Of a stretch of DNA of 64,000 bases, positions 10,449 through 60,142 are shown piece by piece. The DNA lies in contig JBIOJB010000001.1 in assembly GCA_044450465.1 (NCBI GenBank), forward strand, positions 5,815 through 69,814, read 5' to 3'. The stretch's first letter is position 1; each line of letters starts with the position of its first letter. The position numbers were made by a program, and so were the translations under genes. The stretch comes from Candidatus Dormibacterales bacterium (GTDB lineage: Bacteria; Chloroflexota; Dormibacteria; Dormibacterales; Dormibacteraceae). The notes beneath the pieces were generated by a model. The model was not told the origin of the DNA. It ran no database searches and saw nothing but the letters and a program-made list of their open reading frames with translations.

Positions 10449-10594
10449 AGGCGTGGGGGGCCCGACACCCTGCGTCGCGGGTAGGCCGGATTCATTCCGG
10501 CCGTCACCCCGGCGTGAACCCTCCAACCGCCTCCCATTCGCGGCCAGGAGAGGGGGGTTCCGTGGGGGGATCCTGATACCCCCGCGCCCGTCAC
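10445..10594 (-). repeat. Palindromic junction element copy A: 50-codon bridging mini-ORF between the acyltransferase and pimA
   Basis: GTG 10594-10592 overlaps the upstream TGA. TGA 10447-10445 overlaps the pimA ATG. Hairpins lie at 10564-10583 (GGGGGGATC/GATACCCCC) and 10484-10502 (GGCCGGA/TCCGGCC). The core is homologous to 56788-56826. Confidence 0.8.
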
Positions 10595-13854: not shown

Positions 13855-15375
13855 GTGTATGCGCGACGAAAAGTAGCCGTCATGATTCACCGGATGCCGC
13901 GCCGGCTAGTGCTGAAGCTGATGCTCGGAATGACGAGCGGCCTGATCGCCGCCGGATTCTCCGTGACCTCGGCTTTCAGCGCAAACGGACTGACGTTGAC
14001 TCTGAATCCGACGCATGGCCTGGCCGGTGCGACGGTGACGGCGACCGCGACCTACGCGCCGCCCCCGACCGCAGGATGCCCGGTCGGCACATTTGTCCGG
14101 TTTACGTGGGGATCGCCCGCCAAGGCGCTACCGGATGGGAAATTCGACGCATCGTGTAAAGCAACCATCAGCTTCCCGCCGCCAGATACGGCCACCGGTT
14201 CCTACCCCGTGACCGCGACTTGGACGCAAGCCCCCACCGTCACGGATACGCAGAACTACACGATCGATCCACCACCGCCGCCGAGCCCGTCACCAAAACC
14301 CGTTCCCACTCCGACTCCTACCCCGTCTCCGAGCCCGATCCCGACGCCGTCACCCACATGCAGCACCGAGGGCCCCGCGCACGGCTGCGTGCCGGTCAAC
14401 TGCGCCCACCTGACGGCAGCCGTCCTTCCGCTCGGGGGCGGTGGCGGCGTGCCGCCGGTCTTGCTGCTGATCGTCGTGGTTCCAGTTGGAGCGCTGGCGT
14501 GGCGCCACCGGCGGCTTGCCAAACTGGCCGGCCCGATGCTGCTTCTGATGGTGGCGACGAGCTGCACGCTCCACACCTCGTCCGCTGCACCGACCCCGTC
14601 GACAGCACCCGCGGCTGCGCACTCCATCGTCGGTTTCGAGTCGACACCAGACTGCCGCGGCTACTGGATGGTCTCGAACTACGGTGGCATCTTCCCCTTC
14701 GGCAGCGCCACGGGCCATGGCAGCATGGGCGCGACAAAGCTCAACAAGCCGGTCGTGGGCATGGAGTCGACCCCCGACGGTGGCGGCTACTGGCTCGTGG
14801 CCAGTGACGGAAGCATCTTCCCATTCGGCGACGCTAGTGGCTTTGGCAGCACCGGAGCGATCGGGCTCACCAAGCCCATTGTGGCCATGGAGGACACGCC
14901 GGACGGCGGCGGTTACTGGCTGGTCGTCGCCGACGGTGGCGTGTTCCCATTCGGAGACGCCGGCGGGTACGGGAGCACGGGCGCCATCAAGTTGAACCAG
15001 CCCATCGTGGACATCGAGGCGACCCCGGACGGCCACGGTTACTGGCTCGTCGCGGCGGATGGCGGGATCTTCCCGTTCGGTGACGCCCTCGGCTTCGGCA
15101 GCACCGGAGGAATTCACCTCAGCAAACCCATAGTGGACATGGAGTCGACTCCCGACGGCGGCGGCTACTGGCTCGTCGGCGCGGACGGCGGAATTTACCC
15201 CTTCGGCGACGCCCTGGGTTATGGCAGCACAGGTGCTGTTTCCTTGAGCAGCCCGATCGTGGGCATGGAGGACACTCCGGACGGGCACGGCTACTGGCTC
15301 TTCGCCGCTGATGGCAGCATCCACCCGTTCGGCGATGCCCCTGGCTACGGATCTCTAGGCGGAGTGCCCTTCTAA
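13855..15375 (+). CDS. Surface protein: signal peptide, Ig-like domain, Pro/Thr/Ser linker, two hydrophobic segments, six GYWL/FPFGD repeats
   Basis: Signal-like MPRRLVLKLMLGMTSGLIAAGFSVTSAFSA (alternative ATG starts at 13882 and 13894). PTPSPS linker. Six ~40-aa repeats (TPDGGGYWLVxxDGGIFPFGDAxGxGS) cover residues 258-506. Confidence 0.7.
   Translation: MYARRKVAVMIHRMPRRLVLKLMLGMTSGLIAAGFSVTSAFSANGLTLTLNPTHGLAGATVTATATYAPPPTAGCPVGTFVRFTWGSPAKALPDGKFDASCKATISFPPPDTATGSYPVTATWTQAPTVTDTQNYTIDPPPPPSPSPKPVPTPTPTPSPSPIPTPSPTCSTEGPAHGCVPVNCAHLTAAVLPLGGGGGVPPVLLLIVVVPVGALAWRHRRLAKLAGPMLLLMVATSCTLHTSSAAPTPSTAPAAAHSIVGFESTPDCRGYWMVSNYGGIFPFGSATGHGSMGATKLNKPVVGMESTPDGGGYWLVASDGSIFPFGDASGFGSTGAIGLTKPIVAMEDTPDGGGYWLVVADGGVFPFGDAGGYGSTGAIKLNQPIVDIEATPDGHGYWLVAADGGIFPFGDALGFGSTGGIHLSKPIVDMESTPDGGGYWLVGADGGIYPFGDALGYGSTGAVSLSSPIVGMEDTPDGHGYWLFAADGSIHPFGDAPGYGSLGGVPF
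14626..15372 (+). repeat. Six tandem ~120-nt coding repeats (40-aa GYWL/FPFGD units)
   Basis: The units start IVGFESTPDCRGYW, VVGMESTPDGGGYW, IVAMEDTPDGGGYW, IVDIEATPDGHGYW, IVDMESTPDGGGYW and IVGMEDTPDGHGYW. They are in frame within the 13855..15375 CDS. Confidence 0.85.
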
Positions 15376-22926: not shown

Positions 22927-24056
22927 TGGACTTCGCCTTTTCCGAAGAGCAGGAGATGCTGCGCCAGTCGGTGCGTGATTTCCTCGCCAAGGAGTGCAGC
23001 TCCAAGGTCGTACGGAGGCTAATGGAGAGCTCCGACGCTTACGACGCCGCGCTCTGGAAGAAGATGGCCGATCTTGGATGGACCGCGCTCGGGATCCCCG
23101 AGTCCTACGGTGGAGTGGGCGGCTTTCTCGACCTCATCGTCGTTTTCGAGGAGGCGGGTCGCGTGCTTCTGCCCGGACCCTTCTTCGCCACGATGGGCCT
23201 GGCCGTGCCTACGCTGCTCGAGGCTGGGAGTGAGGCTCAGAAGAAAGAGGTGCTGAGCGCCGTCGCGGCCGGTTCGGCGCGCGCCACCCTCGCGTTCACC
23301 GAGCCGTCAGGCCGATGGGACGCAAACGGGATCGCGCTGACGGCGAAGCCCATCGGAGGAGGCTGGACGCTGAGCGGCGTCAAGCTCTTCGTCGCCGACG
23401 CGGACAACGCCGACTACATCGTCGTCGCTGCGCGCACACGCGGCGAGGGGGAGGACGGCGTGTCGCTCTTCCTGGTCAAGGGAAGGCCCAAGGGCATGAC
23501 GGTCTCACAGCTGAAGACTCTCGACATGACCCGGCGATGGAGCGAGATTCGCTTTGACGCCGTGGAGCTCGGGTCTGAAGCCTTGATGGGGCAGCCCGAC
23601 AAGGCATGGGCGCCGCTGAAGCGAGCACTCGAATGGGGAACCGCGGCTCTGTGCGCGGAAATGATGGGCGGCGCGCAGAGGGTGCTCGAGACGTCAACCG
23701 AGTACGCGAAGACTCGCCAGCAGTTCGGCAAGCCGATCGGGATCTACCAGGCGGTGTCCCACAAGCTCGCCGACATGCTCGTCCAGACCGAGAGCGGCCG
23801 CTCGGCAACGTATTACGCGGCCTGGACGGTCGAAGCCGACGCGCCCGACCGATCGGTAGCCTCGTCAATGGCCAAGGCCTATGTCTCAGATGCGTATCGG
23901 AAGGTGGCCGGTGACGGGATACAGGTGCACGGCGGAATCGGGTTCACCTGGGAGCACGACATGCACCTCTACTTCAAGCGCGCCAAGGCGTCGGAGGTGA
24001 CGCTCGGCGACGCGACCTACCATCGCGAGCTGGTAGCGCAGTCGCTCGACTTGTAG
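22926..24056 (+). CDS. Acyl-CoA dehydrogenase
   Basis: Start re-set to ATG 22926 (MDFAFSEEQEMLRQSVRDFLAKE), a canonical ACAD N-terminus. The ORF-track 551-aa version is an upstream extension. Confidence 0.88.
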   Translation: MDFAFSEEQEMLRQSVRDFLAKECSSKVVRRLMESSDAYDAALWKKMADLGWTALGIPESYGGVGGFLDLIVVFEEAGRVLLPGPFFATMGLAVPTLLEAGSEAQKKEVLSAVAAGSARATLAFTEPSGRWDANGIALTAKPIGGGWTLSGVKLFVADADNADYIVVAARTRGEGEDGVSLFLVKGRPKGMTVSQLKTLDMTRRWSEIRFDAVELGSEALMGQPDKAWAPLKRALEWGTAALCAEMMGGAQRVLETSTEYAKTRQQFGKPIGIYQAVSHKLADMLVQTESGRSATYYAAWTVEADAPDRSVASSMAKAYVSDAYRKVAGDGIQVHGGIGFTWEHDMHLYFKRAKASEVTLGDATYHRELVAQSLDL

Positions 24057-55251: not shown

Positions 55252-56708
55252 GCCTTGGCTAGCTGTGGCGACGGAGGCTCGGCGACCGGGACGCCTTCCG
55301 GCTGCGGCTCGAACTGCATCTTGTCCATCACGAGCTGCTGCGGAACGGGCACCGGGTACGAGCCGTCGAAACAGGCGCGACAGAACTCCTGAGCCGTGCC
55401 CCGTCCGATGGCCCTCATCAGACCCGGTATCGAAAGATAGTGCAGGCTGTCGGCGCCAAGGTGAGCGCGAACCTCCTCGACGGTGCGGCCCGAAGCGATC
55501 AGCTCTTTCGTCGAGCCGATGTCGACTCCCATGAAGCACGGATAGCGCATGGGCGGGCTCGAGATGCGCATGTGGATCTCTCGGGCGCCCGCGGCGCGCA
55601 GTCGCTCGATGATCCGCCCTGACGTGGTGCCGCGCACGATCGAATCGTCGACGGCGATGATCCGCTTGCCCCTGATCGACCGCGGAAGGGGATTGAGCTT
55701 CAGCATCACTCCCGCCTCGCGCAGCGATTGGTCGGGCTGGATGAAGGTGCGGTTGATGTAACGGCTCTTCATCAGGGCCTCGCGAAACGGAATGCCGGAC
55801 GCCTCGGCGTAGCCGATGGCGGCGGGGGTGCCCGAGTCCGGGAACGCGACCACCATGTCAGCCTCGACAGGCGCTTCCTTGGCGAGCTCGTGGCCCATTC
55901 GGATCCGGGCGTCTTCGAGCTCGCAGTTTTTGAGGATCGAGTCCGGCCGGGCGAAATAGATGAACTCGAAGACGCACATGGCGTGCTTGTTCGAGGTCAT
56001 GAAGGTCAGGCTGTGAACGCCGTGCTCGTCCATCACCACCATCTCCCCCGGCTGGACCTCCCGGACGAAGTTCGCGCGCACCGTGTCCAGCGCGCAGGTC
56101 TCCGAGGCGATGACATGCGCCGGCTGGCCTGGGAGGGGTATGAAGCCGATGCACAGCGGCCGGAACCCGAACGGATCGCGAAGCGCGATCAGCTGGGTCG
56201 GCGTGATGATCCCGCACGAATAGGCGCCAACGACACGGGCGAAGGTGCGGCGGATGACGTCCTCCCACGTGCGGCCGTGGGTGTGCTCGATGAGCCTGGC
56301 CATGACCTCGGTGTCGAGGGCGGTGTCGAAGGTCGCGCCCTCGTCCTTCAGCTGGGCGCGAAGAGCCTCTGCGTTCAACAGGTTTCCGTTGTGAGCGATC
56401 GCGCCGGGTCCCAGGGTGGGATGGTGAAAGGGGAGCGGGTGCGCGTTCTCGGCCCGGCTGGCGCCGGTGGTCGAGTAGCGCGTGTGACCCAGCGCAAGGA
56501 TCGAGCCCTCGCCCAGGTCCCTGATCTGATCGGGCGAGAAGACGTGGGCGACGAGGCCCATGTCGCGGTGCACGCGCACGGAAGTCCCATCCGAGACCGC
56601 GATGCCGGCCGACTCCTGACCCCGGTGCTGCAGCGCGAAAAGGCCGAAGTAGGTGAGGTTGGCGACATCCACACCCTGCTTGGAGCAGATGCCGAAAACC
56701 CCACACAA
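55248..56708 (-). CDS. purF: Amidophosphoribosyltransferase
   Basis: The TTG start is followed directly by the Ntn nucleophile Cys (MCGVFGICSK). The PRPP motif is present (IIAVDDSIVRGTT). 486 aa. Confidence 0.92.
   Translation of the reverse strand: MCGVFGICSKQGVDVANLTYFGLFALQHRGQESAGIAVSDGTSVRVHRDMGLVAHVFSPDQIRDLGEGSILALGHTRYSTTGASRAENAHPLPFHHPTLGPGAIAHNGNLLNAEALRAQLKDEGATFDTALDTEVMARLIEHTHGRTWEDVIRRTFARVVGAYSCGIITPTQLIALRDPFGFRPLCIGFIPLPGQPAHVIASETCALDTVRANFVREVQPGEMVVMDEHGVHSLTFMTSNKHAMCVFEFIYFARPDSILKNCELEDARIRMGHELAKEAPVEADMVVAFPDSGTPAAIGYAEASGIPFREALMKSRYINRTFIQPDQSLREAGVMLKLNPLPRSIRGKRIIAVDDSIVRGTTSGRIIERLRAAGAREIHMRISSPPMRYPCFMGVDIGSTKELIASGRTVEEVRAHLGADSLHYLSIPGLMRAIGRGTAQEFCRACFDGSYPVPVPQQLVMDKMQFEPQPEGVPVAEPPSPQLAKA
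56668..56707 (-). repeat. Direct repeat copy 1 (purF codons 1-13, functional copy)
   Basis: The 40-nt sequence tccacaccctgcttggagcagatgccgaaaaccccacaca is identical to 56829-56868. Confidence 0.95.
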
Positions 56709-56828
56709 GGTCAGTCGATGCCCCTGGAGTCGCCCGGTTCACCCGGGCGACCCCCCGGACTCACTTTCTGTGTCGACGACGCAAACCAGAGGGGGGTCCG
56801 TGGGGGGATCCTGATCCCCCCGTGCCTT
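56708..56828 (-). repeat. 121-nt hairpin-rich insert between the two purF-start repeats (palindromic element copy B)
   Basis: Hairpins GGGGGGATC/GATCCCCCC (56802-56821) and TCGCCCGG/CCGGGCGA (56730-56750). The core at 56788-56826 is about 38/41 identical to 10549-10588. Confidence 0.85.
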
Positions 56829-56868
56829 TCCACACCCTGCTTGGAGCAGATGCCGAAAACCCCACACA
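56829..56868 (-). repeat. Direct repeat copy 2 (decoy purF start, heads a 52-aa mini-ORF 56869..56711)
   Basis: Identical 40-mer. It keeps GTG-TGT (Met-Cys) 22 nt downstream of the purL stop but reads into the insert and stops at TGA 56713-56711. Confidence 0.9.
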
Positions 56869-56891
56869 CGTCTAGCCGGACACCTTGTGCA

Positions 56892-59091: not shown

Positions 59092-59796
59092 TCAAGAGAC
59101 CAGGACCTTGAGCGCGCTCTCCGCGACCGACTGGAACAGTTTCCGGCCATCCGTGCCACCCAGCTCCGGTTCCGAGCATCGCTCCGGGTGAGGCATCATC
59201 CCCAGCACGTTGCCCCGGGCGTTCACGATTCCCGCGATGTTGTGGAGTGAGCCGTTTGGGTTGGCGGCCTGCGTGACGCGGCCTGATGAATCGCAGTAGC
59301 GGAACACGACCTGGCCGCGCTGCTCAAGCTTTGAAAGCGTCGCGGGATCGGCGAAGTAATTCCCTTCACCGTGCGAGATGGGAATCCGCAGCACCTCGTG
59401 CTCATCGCATTTAGAGGTGAATGCGAGGTCGGTTCTCTCCACGGCAAGGTGGGTCCACTCACAGCGAAACTCCAGCGAGGCGTTGCGAAGGAGCGCACCT
59501 GGCAGCAGTCCCGCTTCGCAGAGAATCTGAAATCCGTTGCAGATCCCCCAGACCAGACCGCCCCGGTCGGCGAACTCGCTGATCCGCTCCATCACCGGGG
59601 CGAAGCGAGCGATCGCTCCGGTGCGCAGGTAATCGCCGTAAGCGAAACCGCCGGGCAGGATGATGCAGTCGCAGCCTTTGATGTCGGCATCCTTGTGCCA
59701 GAGGTACCGGAGCTCGGCGCCCAGGACCTGGTTGACGACCCAGCCGCAGTCGCGGTCGGACCACGTGCCCGGGAAGACTACTACGCCGAACCTCAT
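59092..59796 (-). CDS. purQ: Phosphoribosylformylglycinamidine synthase glutaminase subunit
   Basis: Start re-set to ATG 59796 ([16 protein letters not shown]). GICNGFQIL catalytic Cys motif and HPER near the C-terminus. Confidence 0.9.
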
Positions 59797-59882
59797 GCTA
59801 CTGACCACGCTCGAAGGCACCGCGGGGTCCCCGCGAAATCGCAGATTTCGTGGCGTGCGAAGCCTACTACGCCAAATCTCAC
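59793..59882 (-). repeat. 90-nt purS-purQ junction insert forming a 29-aa bridging mini-ORF
   Basis: GTG 59882-59880 overlaps the purS TGA (GTGA). TGA 59795-59793 overlaps the purQ ATG (ATGA). The first 24 nt are 20/24 identical to the purQ 5' end. Palindromes lie at 59821-59835 and 59834-59850. Confidence 0.8.
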
Positions 59883-60142
59883 TGCCGTGCTCCCGACCGG
59901 ATGTCGAAGCGGAAGTCTTCGATCACGTGGTTGGCGAGCAGCTTGTCGCACATCGCTTCGACGCGCTTTCTCGCCTCCAGCTCGTTGGCCACGTCAAGAC
60001 TCACCTCGATGTACTTGCCGACCCTGACCTCGGAGACCTCGCCGAAGCCAAGCGACGCCAACCCATTCTTGACGGTGATCCCCTGCGGGTCGTTGACGAT
60101 GGGCTTTGGGGTCACCACCACTCTTGCAGTGAAACGACTCAA
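59879..60142 (-). CDS. purS: Phosphoribosylformylglycinamidine synthase subunit PurS
   Basis: 87 aa, [28 protein letters not shown], typical of PurS. The TTG start lies 1 nt after the purC stop. Confidence 0.88.

Follow-up and report, generated by a model that had tools for sequence, protein, structure and literature searches.

How can a mobile or once-mobile piece of DNA come to lie between two operon genes whose reading frames overlap by only four nucleotides, and what becomes of the coupling between these genes when it does? The question is raised by the purS-purQ junction in a 64,000-nt stretch of DNA from a Candidatus Dormibacterales bacterium (contig JBIOJB010000001.1), referred to here as the window, in which the minus strand encodes the pur operon as purB, purC, purS, purQ, purL and purF. 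Between purS and purQ the window carries an insert of 86 nt, made up of a second copy of the purQ start, a hairpin-forming core and a spacer, all read through by a small open reading frame (ORF). Judged by its core, this insert is one copy of a small palindromic repeat scattered in soil Dormibacterota genomes. The explanation that we consider probable is that it represents an old copy of a small non-coding Dormibacterota palindromic repeat, mobile or once mobile, which sits beside a duplicated purQ start and is spanned by a relay frame that couples purS to purQ; the mobility of the element is something that we infer.

A sequence-only reading of this locus had described a 29-codon frame which overlaps the purS stop as GTGA and the purQ start as ATGA, which opens with a diverged copy of the beginning of purQ, and which contains two palindromes, and all of these parts are found where they had been placed (Table 1). 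The spare copy of the purQ start (T1) and the copy attached to the gene (T2) form a direct repeat, 59859-59881 versus 59773-59795, with 20 of 23 positions identical after the first base of the start codon and a spacing of 86 nt, and this pair is one of only eight short-range direct-repeat families in the window. The palindromes are CGCGGGG-A-CCCCGCG at 59821-59835 and CGAAATC-TGC-GATTTCG at 59834-59850, with arms at 59831-59840 and 59844-59853 that are 90% complementary, and the 32-nt core occurs once in the window and not at all in 100 shuffles. When scored with a covariance model of the repeat built from 32 copies (R1), the window copy reaches 61.3 bits (E 1e-14) and is the only convincing match in the 64 kb; another match, at 23088-23119 (E = 0.57), lies inside a coding sequence and is taken as chance. 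Rfam 15 gives no match at the gathering score in the window and none at E <= 1 across 59600-60100, and neither promoter-like nor terminator-like sites are found at the purS-purQ locus. The arrangement also carries a warning for annotation, as the start of purQ is 59796, and not 59820 or 59882.

Table 1. Features of the purS-purQ junction, followed by those of the purL-purF junction and its related hairpin (window coordinates).
Feature	Position	Strand	Remarks
purS (87 codons)	59879..60142	minus	ends CAG TGA; PurS-like sequence
GTGA overlap of purS TGA (59879-59881) and mini-ORF GTG	59882-59879	minus	
Bridging mini-ORF, 29 codons + stop	59793..59882	minus	GTGA at purS stop, ATGA at purQ start
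T1, spare ("ghost") copy of purQ codons 1-8, GTGAGATTTGGCGTAGTAGGCTTC	59859..59882	minus	native overlap with purS stop retained
Repeat core CGCACGCCACGAAATCTGCGATTTCGCGGGGACCCCGCG, degenerate copy of consensus ccACCCCACGAAATCTtCGATTTCGCGGGGACCCCgg	59821..59859	minus	covariance model R1
Inner hairpin	59831..59853	.	10-nt arms, 3-nt loop, one A.C mismatch (G.U on opposite strand)
Site-specific spacer GTGCCTTCGAGCGTGGTCAGTAGC	59797..59820	minus	holds mini-ORF end; no clear Shine-Dalgarno
ATGA overlap of mini-ORF TGA (59795-59793) and purQ ATG (59796-59794)	59796-59793	minus	
purQ	59092..59796	minus	true start ATG 59796; PurQ of relatives all begin there
T2, gene-attached copy of duplicated segment	59773-59796	minus	
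purL-purF parallel case	56668..56869	minus	perfect 40-nt direct repeat of purF start, copies 56668-56707 and 56829-56868
121-nt insert between purF-start repeats, two hairpins	56708-56828	minus	
52-codon frame beginning with purF N-terminus	56711-56869	minus	
Second copy (30/32) of first purF-insert hairpin	10553..10584	minus	intergenic, directly after stop codon

The first line of evidence comes from the same junction in related genomes (loci designated by L numbers). The closest relatives of this PurQ are 76-88% identical and belong to metagenome-assembled genomes labelled Candidatus Dormibacterota; an exact look-up of the protein found neither its 234-aa nor its 242-aa form on record. It had been proposed from the sequence that an ancestral direct junction was duplicated here, in which case most relatives should show a simple overlap of purS and purQ; this is what the comparison returned, given that a direct join by ATGA, GTGA or TTGA is found in at least 17 Dormibacterota relatives, and the opposite case, relatives lacking any simpler junction, did not arise. 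The insert is present in seven other assemblies. Five of them (L005, L136, L006, L007 and L125) share the architecture of the window, i.e., a spare purQ start, a hairpin, a spacer and the true start, one (L009) has the core with a flanking repeat of 8 nt only and keeps the two-frame arrangement, and in the last (L020) a variant hairpin is translated as an in-frame C-terminal tail of PurS. On the purQ tree, the occupied sites are scattered, each of them beside an empty sister. This scatter, together with the direct overlap in most relatives, supports the view that the insert is an insertion, and not an ancestral feature.

The comparison also bears on the number of events. The spare copy in L125 has a three-codon extension (R-G-I-R versus K-R-I-K) which is common to its empty sister, L014, and absent from the other lineages, and this points either to more than one insertion or to gene conversion between the copies. 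The patchy distribution fits a combination of repeated insertion, precise loss by repeat recombination and exchange between lineages, with the losses likely to have occurred through recombination between the T1 and T2 repeats. As read from these sequences, the purS-purQ junction is one that has been repeatedly colonised or emptied again.

The second line of evidence lies outside the pur operon. An exact-pattern scan of soil-metagenome contigs with CACGARWTCNNNGATTTCGYGGGG matched at least 120 contigs, with the repeat present at over 60 distinct sites, and the counts given below for the family rest on an alignment of 102 usable copies among the matches listed. The consensus of these copies is sharp over about 37-39 nt (ccACCCCACGAAATCTtCGATTTCGCGGGGACCCCgg), with flanks that are otherwise unrelated and that cluster into 56-64 singleton contexts plus groups of orthologous sites. 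The search for the palindromes suggested earlier has in this way placed the core within a large dispersed repeat family, and the idea of a pur-specific RNA, based on 80 genome loci in which the core was seen only at purS-purQ, is overturned by the matches in the metagenome contigs. As far as the literature searched shows, the family is apparently undescribed, and a search for work on repeats in Dormibacterota or on long duplications of the target at start codons returned nothing relevant.

The members of this family vary in a manner that preserves pairing. When applied to 266 kb of Dormibacterota loci, R1 finds variants (in L020, L019, L017, L009 and L005) whose inner stems are different yet complementary, and in which the ACCCC...GGGGACCCC frame is kept. 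The three outermost base pairs covary, with 30 cells changed on both sides against 13.7 +/- 2.9 after shuffling (none of 500 shuffles is as high), and 58 of 101 copies have three or more complementary outer bases, versus 14% in the null. From these alignments, it is the structure that is conserved, and not the sequence alone. The three bases outside ACCCC...ACCCC pair but vary by copy (CCC/GGG, ACC/GGT, ATC/GAT, TGG/CCA, GAC/GTC and others), and such complementary bases may be made at insertion or reflect a palindromic target.

The third line of evidence concerns the way in which the insert may be tolerated. The ancestral junction was a stop/start overlap of 4 nt that left foreign DNA no space, and the insertion brought with it the duplication of the first 24 nt of purQ. 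The mRNA now presents, in order, purS, T1 overlapping the purS stop, the 39-nt core, the 24-nt spacer and T2. Ribosomes ending purS would restart at T1, which serves as a spare start, translate the 29-codon frame through the hairpin, terminate at the TGA inside the purQ ATGA, and then restart on purQ. A relay of this type would make the insert translationally transparent, with purQ remaining coupled to purS.

Support for such a relay comes from the geometry of the occupied sites. The spacing between the T1 and T2 starts is 86 nt in the window, L005, L136, L006 and L007, and 68 nt (86 minus 18) in L009, and as both values are 2 mod 3, the stop of the mini-ORF falls on the TGA of ATGA or GTGA. 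The spacing in L125 is 97 nt, where the mini-ORF has its own TGA 4 nt upstream of the purQ start. At every site the mini-ORF ends no more than 4 nt from the purQ start (the overlap in L006 is TAATG), and start/stop overlaps at both of its ends are also found in L005, L136, L007 and L009. Between lineages, the identity at purS-purQ is 0.78-0.95 in the core, 0.62-0.79 in T1 and 0.16-0.52 in the spacer, which means that length and frame were kept while the spacer was nearly randomised; this pattern speaks more strongly than any other for the importance of the frame, and it suggests that the bridging frame is under selection. A preserved coupling of purS and purQ may be deduced from this conservation of frame and length. 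GGAG-like motifs are present in the spacers of L005, L006 and L009, and given that the window spacer has no clear Shine-Dalgarno, it is in the window that purQ would depend most on termination-reinitiation.

Several points weigh against the explanation of the insert as a mobile repeat crossed by a relay frame. A 29-codon open frame is not rare in GC-rich DNA, and the TGA in ATGA exists anyway, because the second codon of purQ starts with A. The lack of stops in the core was considered as a sign of design and rejected as evidence, as the chance probability of six open frames is 0.12-0.29. If the window, L005, L006 and L007 inherited one insertion, the shared 86 nt would represent one event followed by no indels, and not five observations. 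As for the mobility of the family, most of the metagenome contigs have no assigned taxon, and neither a transposase or other mobilising gene nor a fresh transposition of the repeat was found among the loci and contigs studied; the gene lying between an inverted pair of cores in L132, considered as a possible transposase, is murE. About 80% of the copies have no detectable flanking repeat, which indicates that the duplication is not an obligatory mark of insertion. Finally, the consensus hairpin folds at -16.1 kcal/mol (z = -3.2), and at -19.2 kcal/mol on the opposite strand, where the A.C mismatch becomes G.U, and the window core reaches -12.3 kcal/mol (z = -0.5), with the 131-nt region folding no better than shuffles (z = +1.0); the hairpin of the window is weakened, and any structure-dependent role may be lost at this site.

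The frame that suggests a relay could also be read as a gene in its own right, with the mini-ORF encoding a functional micro-protein that acts, for example, on the PurS-PurQ-PurL complex. All eight occupied purS-purQ sites do read the core in the same frame, as (A/P)PHE(I/F)xDFAGTP or a close variant, and the first 8 residues copy the PurQ N-terminus with differences that are mostly synonymous. At other loci, however, the core is read in any of the six frames, in either orientation, the C-terminal third of the peptide is unconserved, the spare copy shows replacements that are never seen in true PurQ (at the G/V and V/A/G positions), and the ORF is absent from most relatives. It is the free choice of frame elsewhere and the unconserved tail, in particular, that make the peptide itself unlikely to be the point, and a micro-protein is on the whole improbable.

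A regulatory RNA specific to the pur operon (a riboswitch, an attenuator or a processing site) which evolved in place between purS and purQ is quite improbable as well. Such an RNA would be in keeping with the alternative pairings CCCC...GGGG versus GGGG-A-CCCC, with the core as the part of the insert that is best conserved between lineages, and with the hairpin elements found at several further pur junctions. The same core nonetheless is present at over 56 sites that have no relation to one another, with ribosomal, atp, arg and mur operons among them, in both orientations, and it is absent from the purS-purQ junction of most close relatives. The lack of any Rfam match even at E <= 1, the lack of a terminator-like tail and the degenerate state of the window copy also speak against this role. 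A search of five related loci with Rfam found tRNA only.

Local tandem duplication of the junction, followed by the evolution of a palindrome and with no mobile element involved, would produce the direct repeat with its 86-nt period, but the sequence that the two copies enclose matches, at 61 bits, a repeat present at many further loci. A tandem origin would be in keeping with a weak resemblance of the spacer to the 3' end of purS, seen in the window only (z = 2.1); across 24 sites, however, the spacers show no relation to what lies upstream of the repeat (mean z = 0.2, only 3 above 2, the window being one of these), and the idea of the spacer as a decayed copy of the purS 3' end, left by one long target duplication that eroded in its non-coding portion, is not supported as a general rule. 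The membership of the core in the family refutes a tandem origin as the sole explanation, and this origin is very unlikely. A similarly low probability applies to a DNA operator bound by a dimeric regulator, such as a PurR-like repressor, which the 7-3-7 geometry of the inverted repeat would suit, and which has little in its favour once it is considered that the variants keep the pairing of the stem and not its sequence, and that copies lie inside operons of unrelated function, one of them in frame within purL. The suspicion, raised in the sequence-only reading, that the real purQ starts at the upstream GTG and was split by a frameshift error in the assembly or sequencing is barely conceivable and can be set aside, because, even though the upstream frame begins PurQ-like (MRFGVV.F), two separate copies of the purQ start and the two-frame layout recur in independent assemblies (L005, L136, L006, L007, L125 and L009), the PurQ of relatives starts directly at the true start, and one frameshift cannot create a second copy of the N-terminus.

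The insertion of a dispersed repeat, as the preferred explanation, receives further detail from the other members of the family, some of which are also accompanied by duplicated gene ends. The flanks of 22 of the 102 copies align above the 99th percentile of mismatched flank pairs, and 13 exceed every null value. In all duplicated cases, T1 lies next to the core on its CCACCCC side, at a distance of 0-2 nt, and T2, which is always the gene-body copy, is found 11-39 nt beyond the GGGGACCCCGG side. Which end of the gene is duplicated depends on its orientation, i.e., the 5' end where the gene follows the consensus orientation (purQ, and rplN after rpsQ), and the 3' end where it is opposite (a thiolase-like gene, rplW, rplB, rpsL, rpmD, argJ and atpF). 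The duplicated sites are tight operon junctions, such as rpsQ-rplN, rplW-rplB, rplB-rpsS, rpsL-rpsG, rpmD-rplO, argJ-argB and atpF-atpH, and at several of them a frame runs from the upstream stop, or from near it, through the core and into the spare gene end. The start-to-start period is 85-89 nt in 16 of 26 cases, which represent at least 8 unrelated sites, with a recognisable repeat of 19 to 41 nt. The flanking duplication measures 24 nt in the window and 14-73 nt at other sites, with short duplications of 4 nt in L019 and 8 nt in L129.

The spare copies also appear to be constrained. Of 101 differences between T1 and T2, 78 fall in one codon phase, where 2000 simulations of the null give 57.5 on average and 69 at most. 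Many of the pairs encode identical peptides, and, when compared across orthologous sites, spare and functional copies are conserved to about the same degree, and the spare copies far more so than the spacers. The T1 side keeps the native junction and would for this reason be constrained as a region of translation start or stop, and the spacer-T2 side would be a new junction in need of its own signals. Gene conversion may add to this pattern, given that within a genome T1 and T2 have lineage-specific variants in common (the window has GTA GTA, L125 has GTT and L170 has GATTTT).

A tentative generalisation, which we regard as possible and rather doubtful, would be that hairpin elements enter gene boundaries by duplicating a fixed target of ~49 nt, with the native junction surviving as a translated "ghost" gene end and the other side evolving a new start, stop and Shine-Dalgarno. 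The nearly constant period of ~87 nt keeps this idea of a long target duplication alive despite the unrelated spacers. If it were true, a duplication of ~49 nt would exceed by far any target duplication that is usual for transposons and would imply a new mechanism of insertion, such as a ruler-like integrase or template switching at the hairpin, and it would provide mobile DNA with a general route into essential operons that have no intergenic space.

The location of the copies was assessed from the direction of the surrounding frames, as judged by the GC content at third codon positions and by open frames. Among the 90 listed copies with enough flank, 45 lie between co-directional frames (25 in one orientation and 20 in the other), with divergent frames on either side of 10 further copies and convergent frames on either side of 2. 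Arrays in which the core is repeated head to tail every 42 nt (14 codons), and which resemble a variable number tandem repeat (VNTR), are present in L094 (9392-9457) and L120 (3479-3586), with a similar one in L105 at about 3511. At L117 (1-200) a near-perfect tandem duplication, with one mismatch, comprises the core plus 57 nt with the end of rplW, and it indicates that such units can amplify by unequal recombination. In six contigs (L085, L122, L134, L148, L163 and L196) the core directly follows another type of hairpin (CACCCCAAAAAATCTGCGATTATTC; composite with CACCCCAAAAAATCT...), and these composites stand just past stop codons, in the manner of bacterial interspersed mosaic elements (BIMEs).

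Other copies touch the pur genes themselves. A variant element, ACCACCCCAAAAAATCTGGCGATTTTTCGGGGACGCCGGT, is found between purC and purS in L019 (1757-1796), with ATGA on both sides, where a frame of 15 codons, MTTPKNLAIFRGRRL, runs from an overlap with the stop of purC to one with the start of purS. In L009 (4016-4066) a variant repeat is in frame inside purL, separating the conserved motifs SLYN.. and ..PTPVVGM by about 17 added residues (KIPTKSEASPETSGGPLKTS). In 16 contigs, which include L096, L099, L109, L124, L126, L144, L147, L171, L173 and L180, the core is surrounded by a conserved context of ~190 nt (...CCTAGGCGGCCGGGCGCC[core]GGCGCTGAAGCCTGCGTC...), which probably represents a mosaic repeat of larger size that holds the core in one of its loops. 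This context, without the core, sits between purL and purF in L014, and the larger mosaic repeat is found between these genes in L014 and L017. Its interpretation as a purF leader RNA was rejected, as it has no Rfam match and purF lies downstream only in L014 and L017.

The purL-purF junction of the window itself carries a second insert of comparable layout (Table 1), in which the downstream copy of the purF repeat starts with TTG and the upstream copy with GTG, and the second hairpin folds at -36 kcal/mol (z = -5.4). This insert is found in none of 21 relatives and is for this reason recent, and younger than that of purS-purQ. The perfect 40-nt repeat and the hairpins, which differ from those of purS-purQ, also agree with the earlier description of the two junctions as similar in logic and different in age and core. 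The copy of the first purF-insert hairpin at 10553-10584 stands between the stop of an acyltransferase-like ORF and a glycosyltransferase-like ORF, and it provides evidence of a second small repeat family in this genome. A repeat scan of the window also found four tandem 126-nt units at 14624-15301, about 71-72% identical over 300 nt, which may be a repeated protein domain.

Among known systems, the closest in behaviour are the interspersed repetitive units of mycobacteria (MIRUs). The insertion of MIRUs takes place at start codons, with the ORF of the repeat coupled to the gene at a -4 spacing (PMC12548453, citing Supply et al. 1997; PMC3184786), and to that extent both systems are found at stop/start overlaps with an ORF that meets the downstream gene at -4. 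MIRUs also have direct repeats of four nucleotides and inverted repeats that are imperfect, and they are transcribed polycistronically (PMC3184786). The two kinds of repeat are alike in being dispersed, short (40-100 bp) and GC-rich, in having internal inverted repeats, in lying inside operons with which they are co-transcribed, and in forming tandem arrays, with a period of 42 nt in Dormibacterota (L094 and L120); the purC-purS copy of L019 (ATGA...ATGA) has the textbook MIRU arrangement. On the other hand, the hosts belong to different phyla (Dormibacterota versus Actinomycetota), the Dormibacterota copies occur in both orientations (25 versus 20), whereas MIRU ORFs are reported to be co-oriented with the flanking genes, and the flanking duplications are 14-73 nt of a gene end, with a period of ~87 nt, and not 4 nt. 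A MIRU-type NTGA...NTGA duplication was considered as a rule for the main family and rejected, as it is seen in 1 of 108 copies only (L129). In its behaviour, the Dormibacterota repeat may be said to work like a MIRU, and it is not assigned to the MIRU family.

Repetitive extragenic palindromes (REPs) are defined by a GTAG-type 5' tetranucleotide, and nothing similar is present in the Dormibacterota consensus, which starts with ccACCCCACG. REPs and the REPINs that they form resemble the present family in being high-copy imperfect palindromes of about 35-40 nt with conserved stem mismatches, and in occurring singly, in tandem and in mosaics with other types of hairpin (PMC3116915, PMC3337134). 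They are mobilised by RAYT transposases (PMC3116915, PMC3337134), whereas no RAYT gene was seen in the Dormibacterota contigs, which are genome fragments. The Dormibacterota copies are enriched between co-directional and divergent genes, and not between convergent ones (45 and 10 versus 2 of 90), some of them lie within genes or are apparently translated through, and long flanking duplications are not a trait of REPs or REPINs. The Rickettsia palindromic elements (RPEs), which are 100-150 bp long and mostly intragenic, survive in reading frames by being stop-free. The variant copy in frame within purL (L009) is similar in this respect, whereas the Dormibacterota copies are mostly located at gene boundaries. 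Transposable elements of the miniature inverted-repeat type (MITEs) such as Correia/NEMIS and ERIC are likewise non-autonomous, co-transcribed and hairpin-forming, with flanking direct repeats (PMC3184786). They have fixed short target duplications (2-9 bp) and recognisable parent insertion sequences (PMC3184786), whereas in the Dormibacterota family the inverted repeat makes up the entire element, the recognisable length of the long flanking repeats varies, and no parent insertion sequence was seen.

The element is most likely selfish or neutral, and it may possibly influence how stable the mRNA is or the ratio in which purS and purQ are expressed. For the organism, the two odd junctions of its pur operon would be explained as the footprints of small mobile repeats. 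For the biology of such repeats, the purS-purQ insert would provide a second, phylogenetically remote case of the MIRU strategy, whereby a relay reading frame allows a repeat to persist within an operon, here in an uncultured soil phylum. The 42-nt VNTR-like arrays could also serve as strain-typing markers in Dormibacterota metagenomes. Less expected are the regularities found across the family, i.e., the fixed period of ~87 nt, the constraint on the spare gene ends and the covariation of the outer base pairs. If they are general, the near-constant period and the mainly synonymous changes of the spare copies would point to a mechanism of insertion, and to a form of selection, so far undescribed in bacterial repeats.

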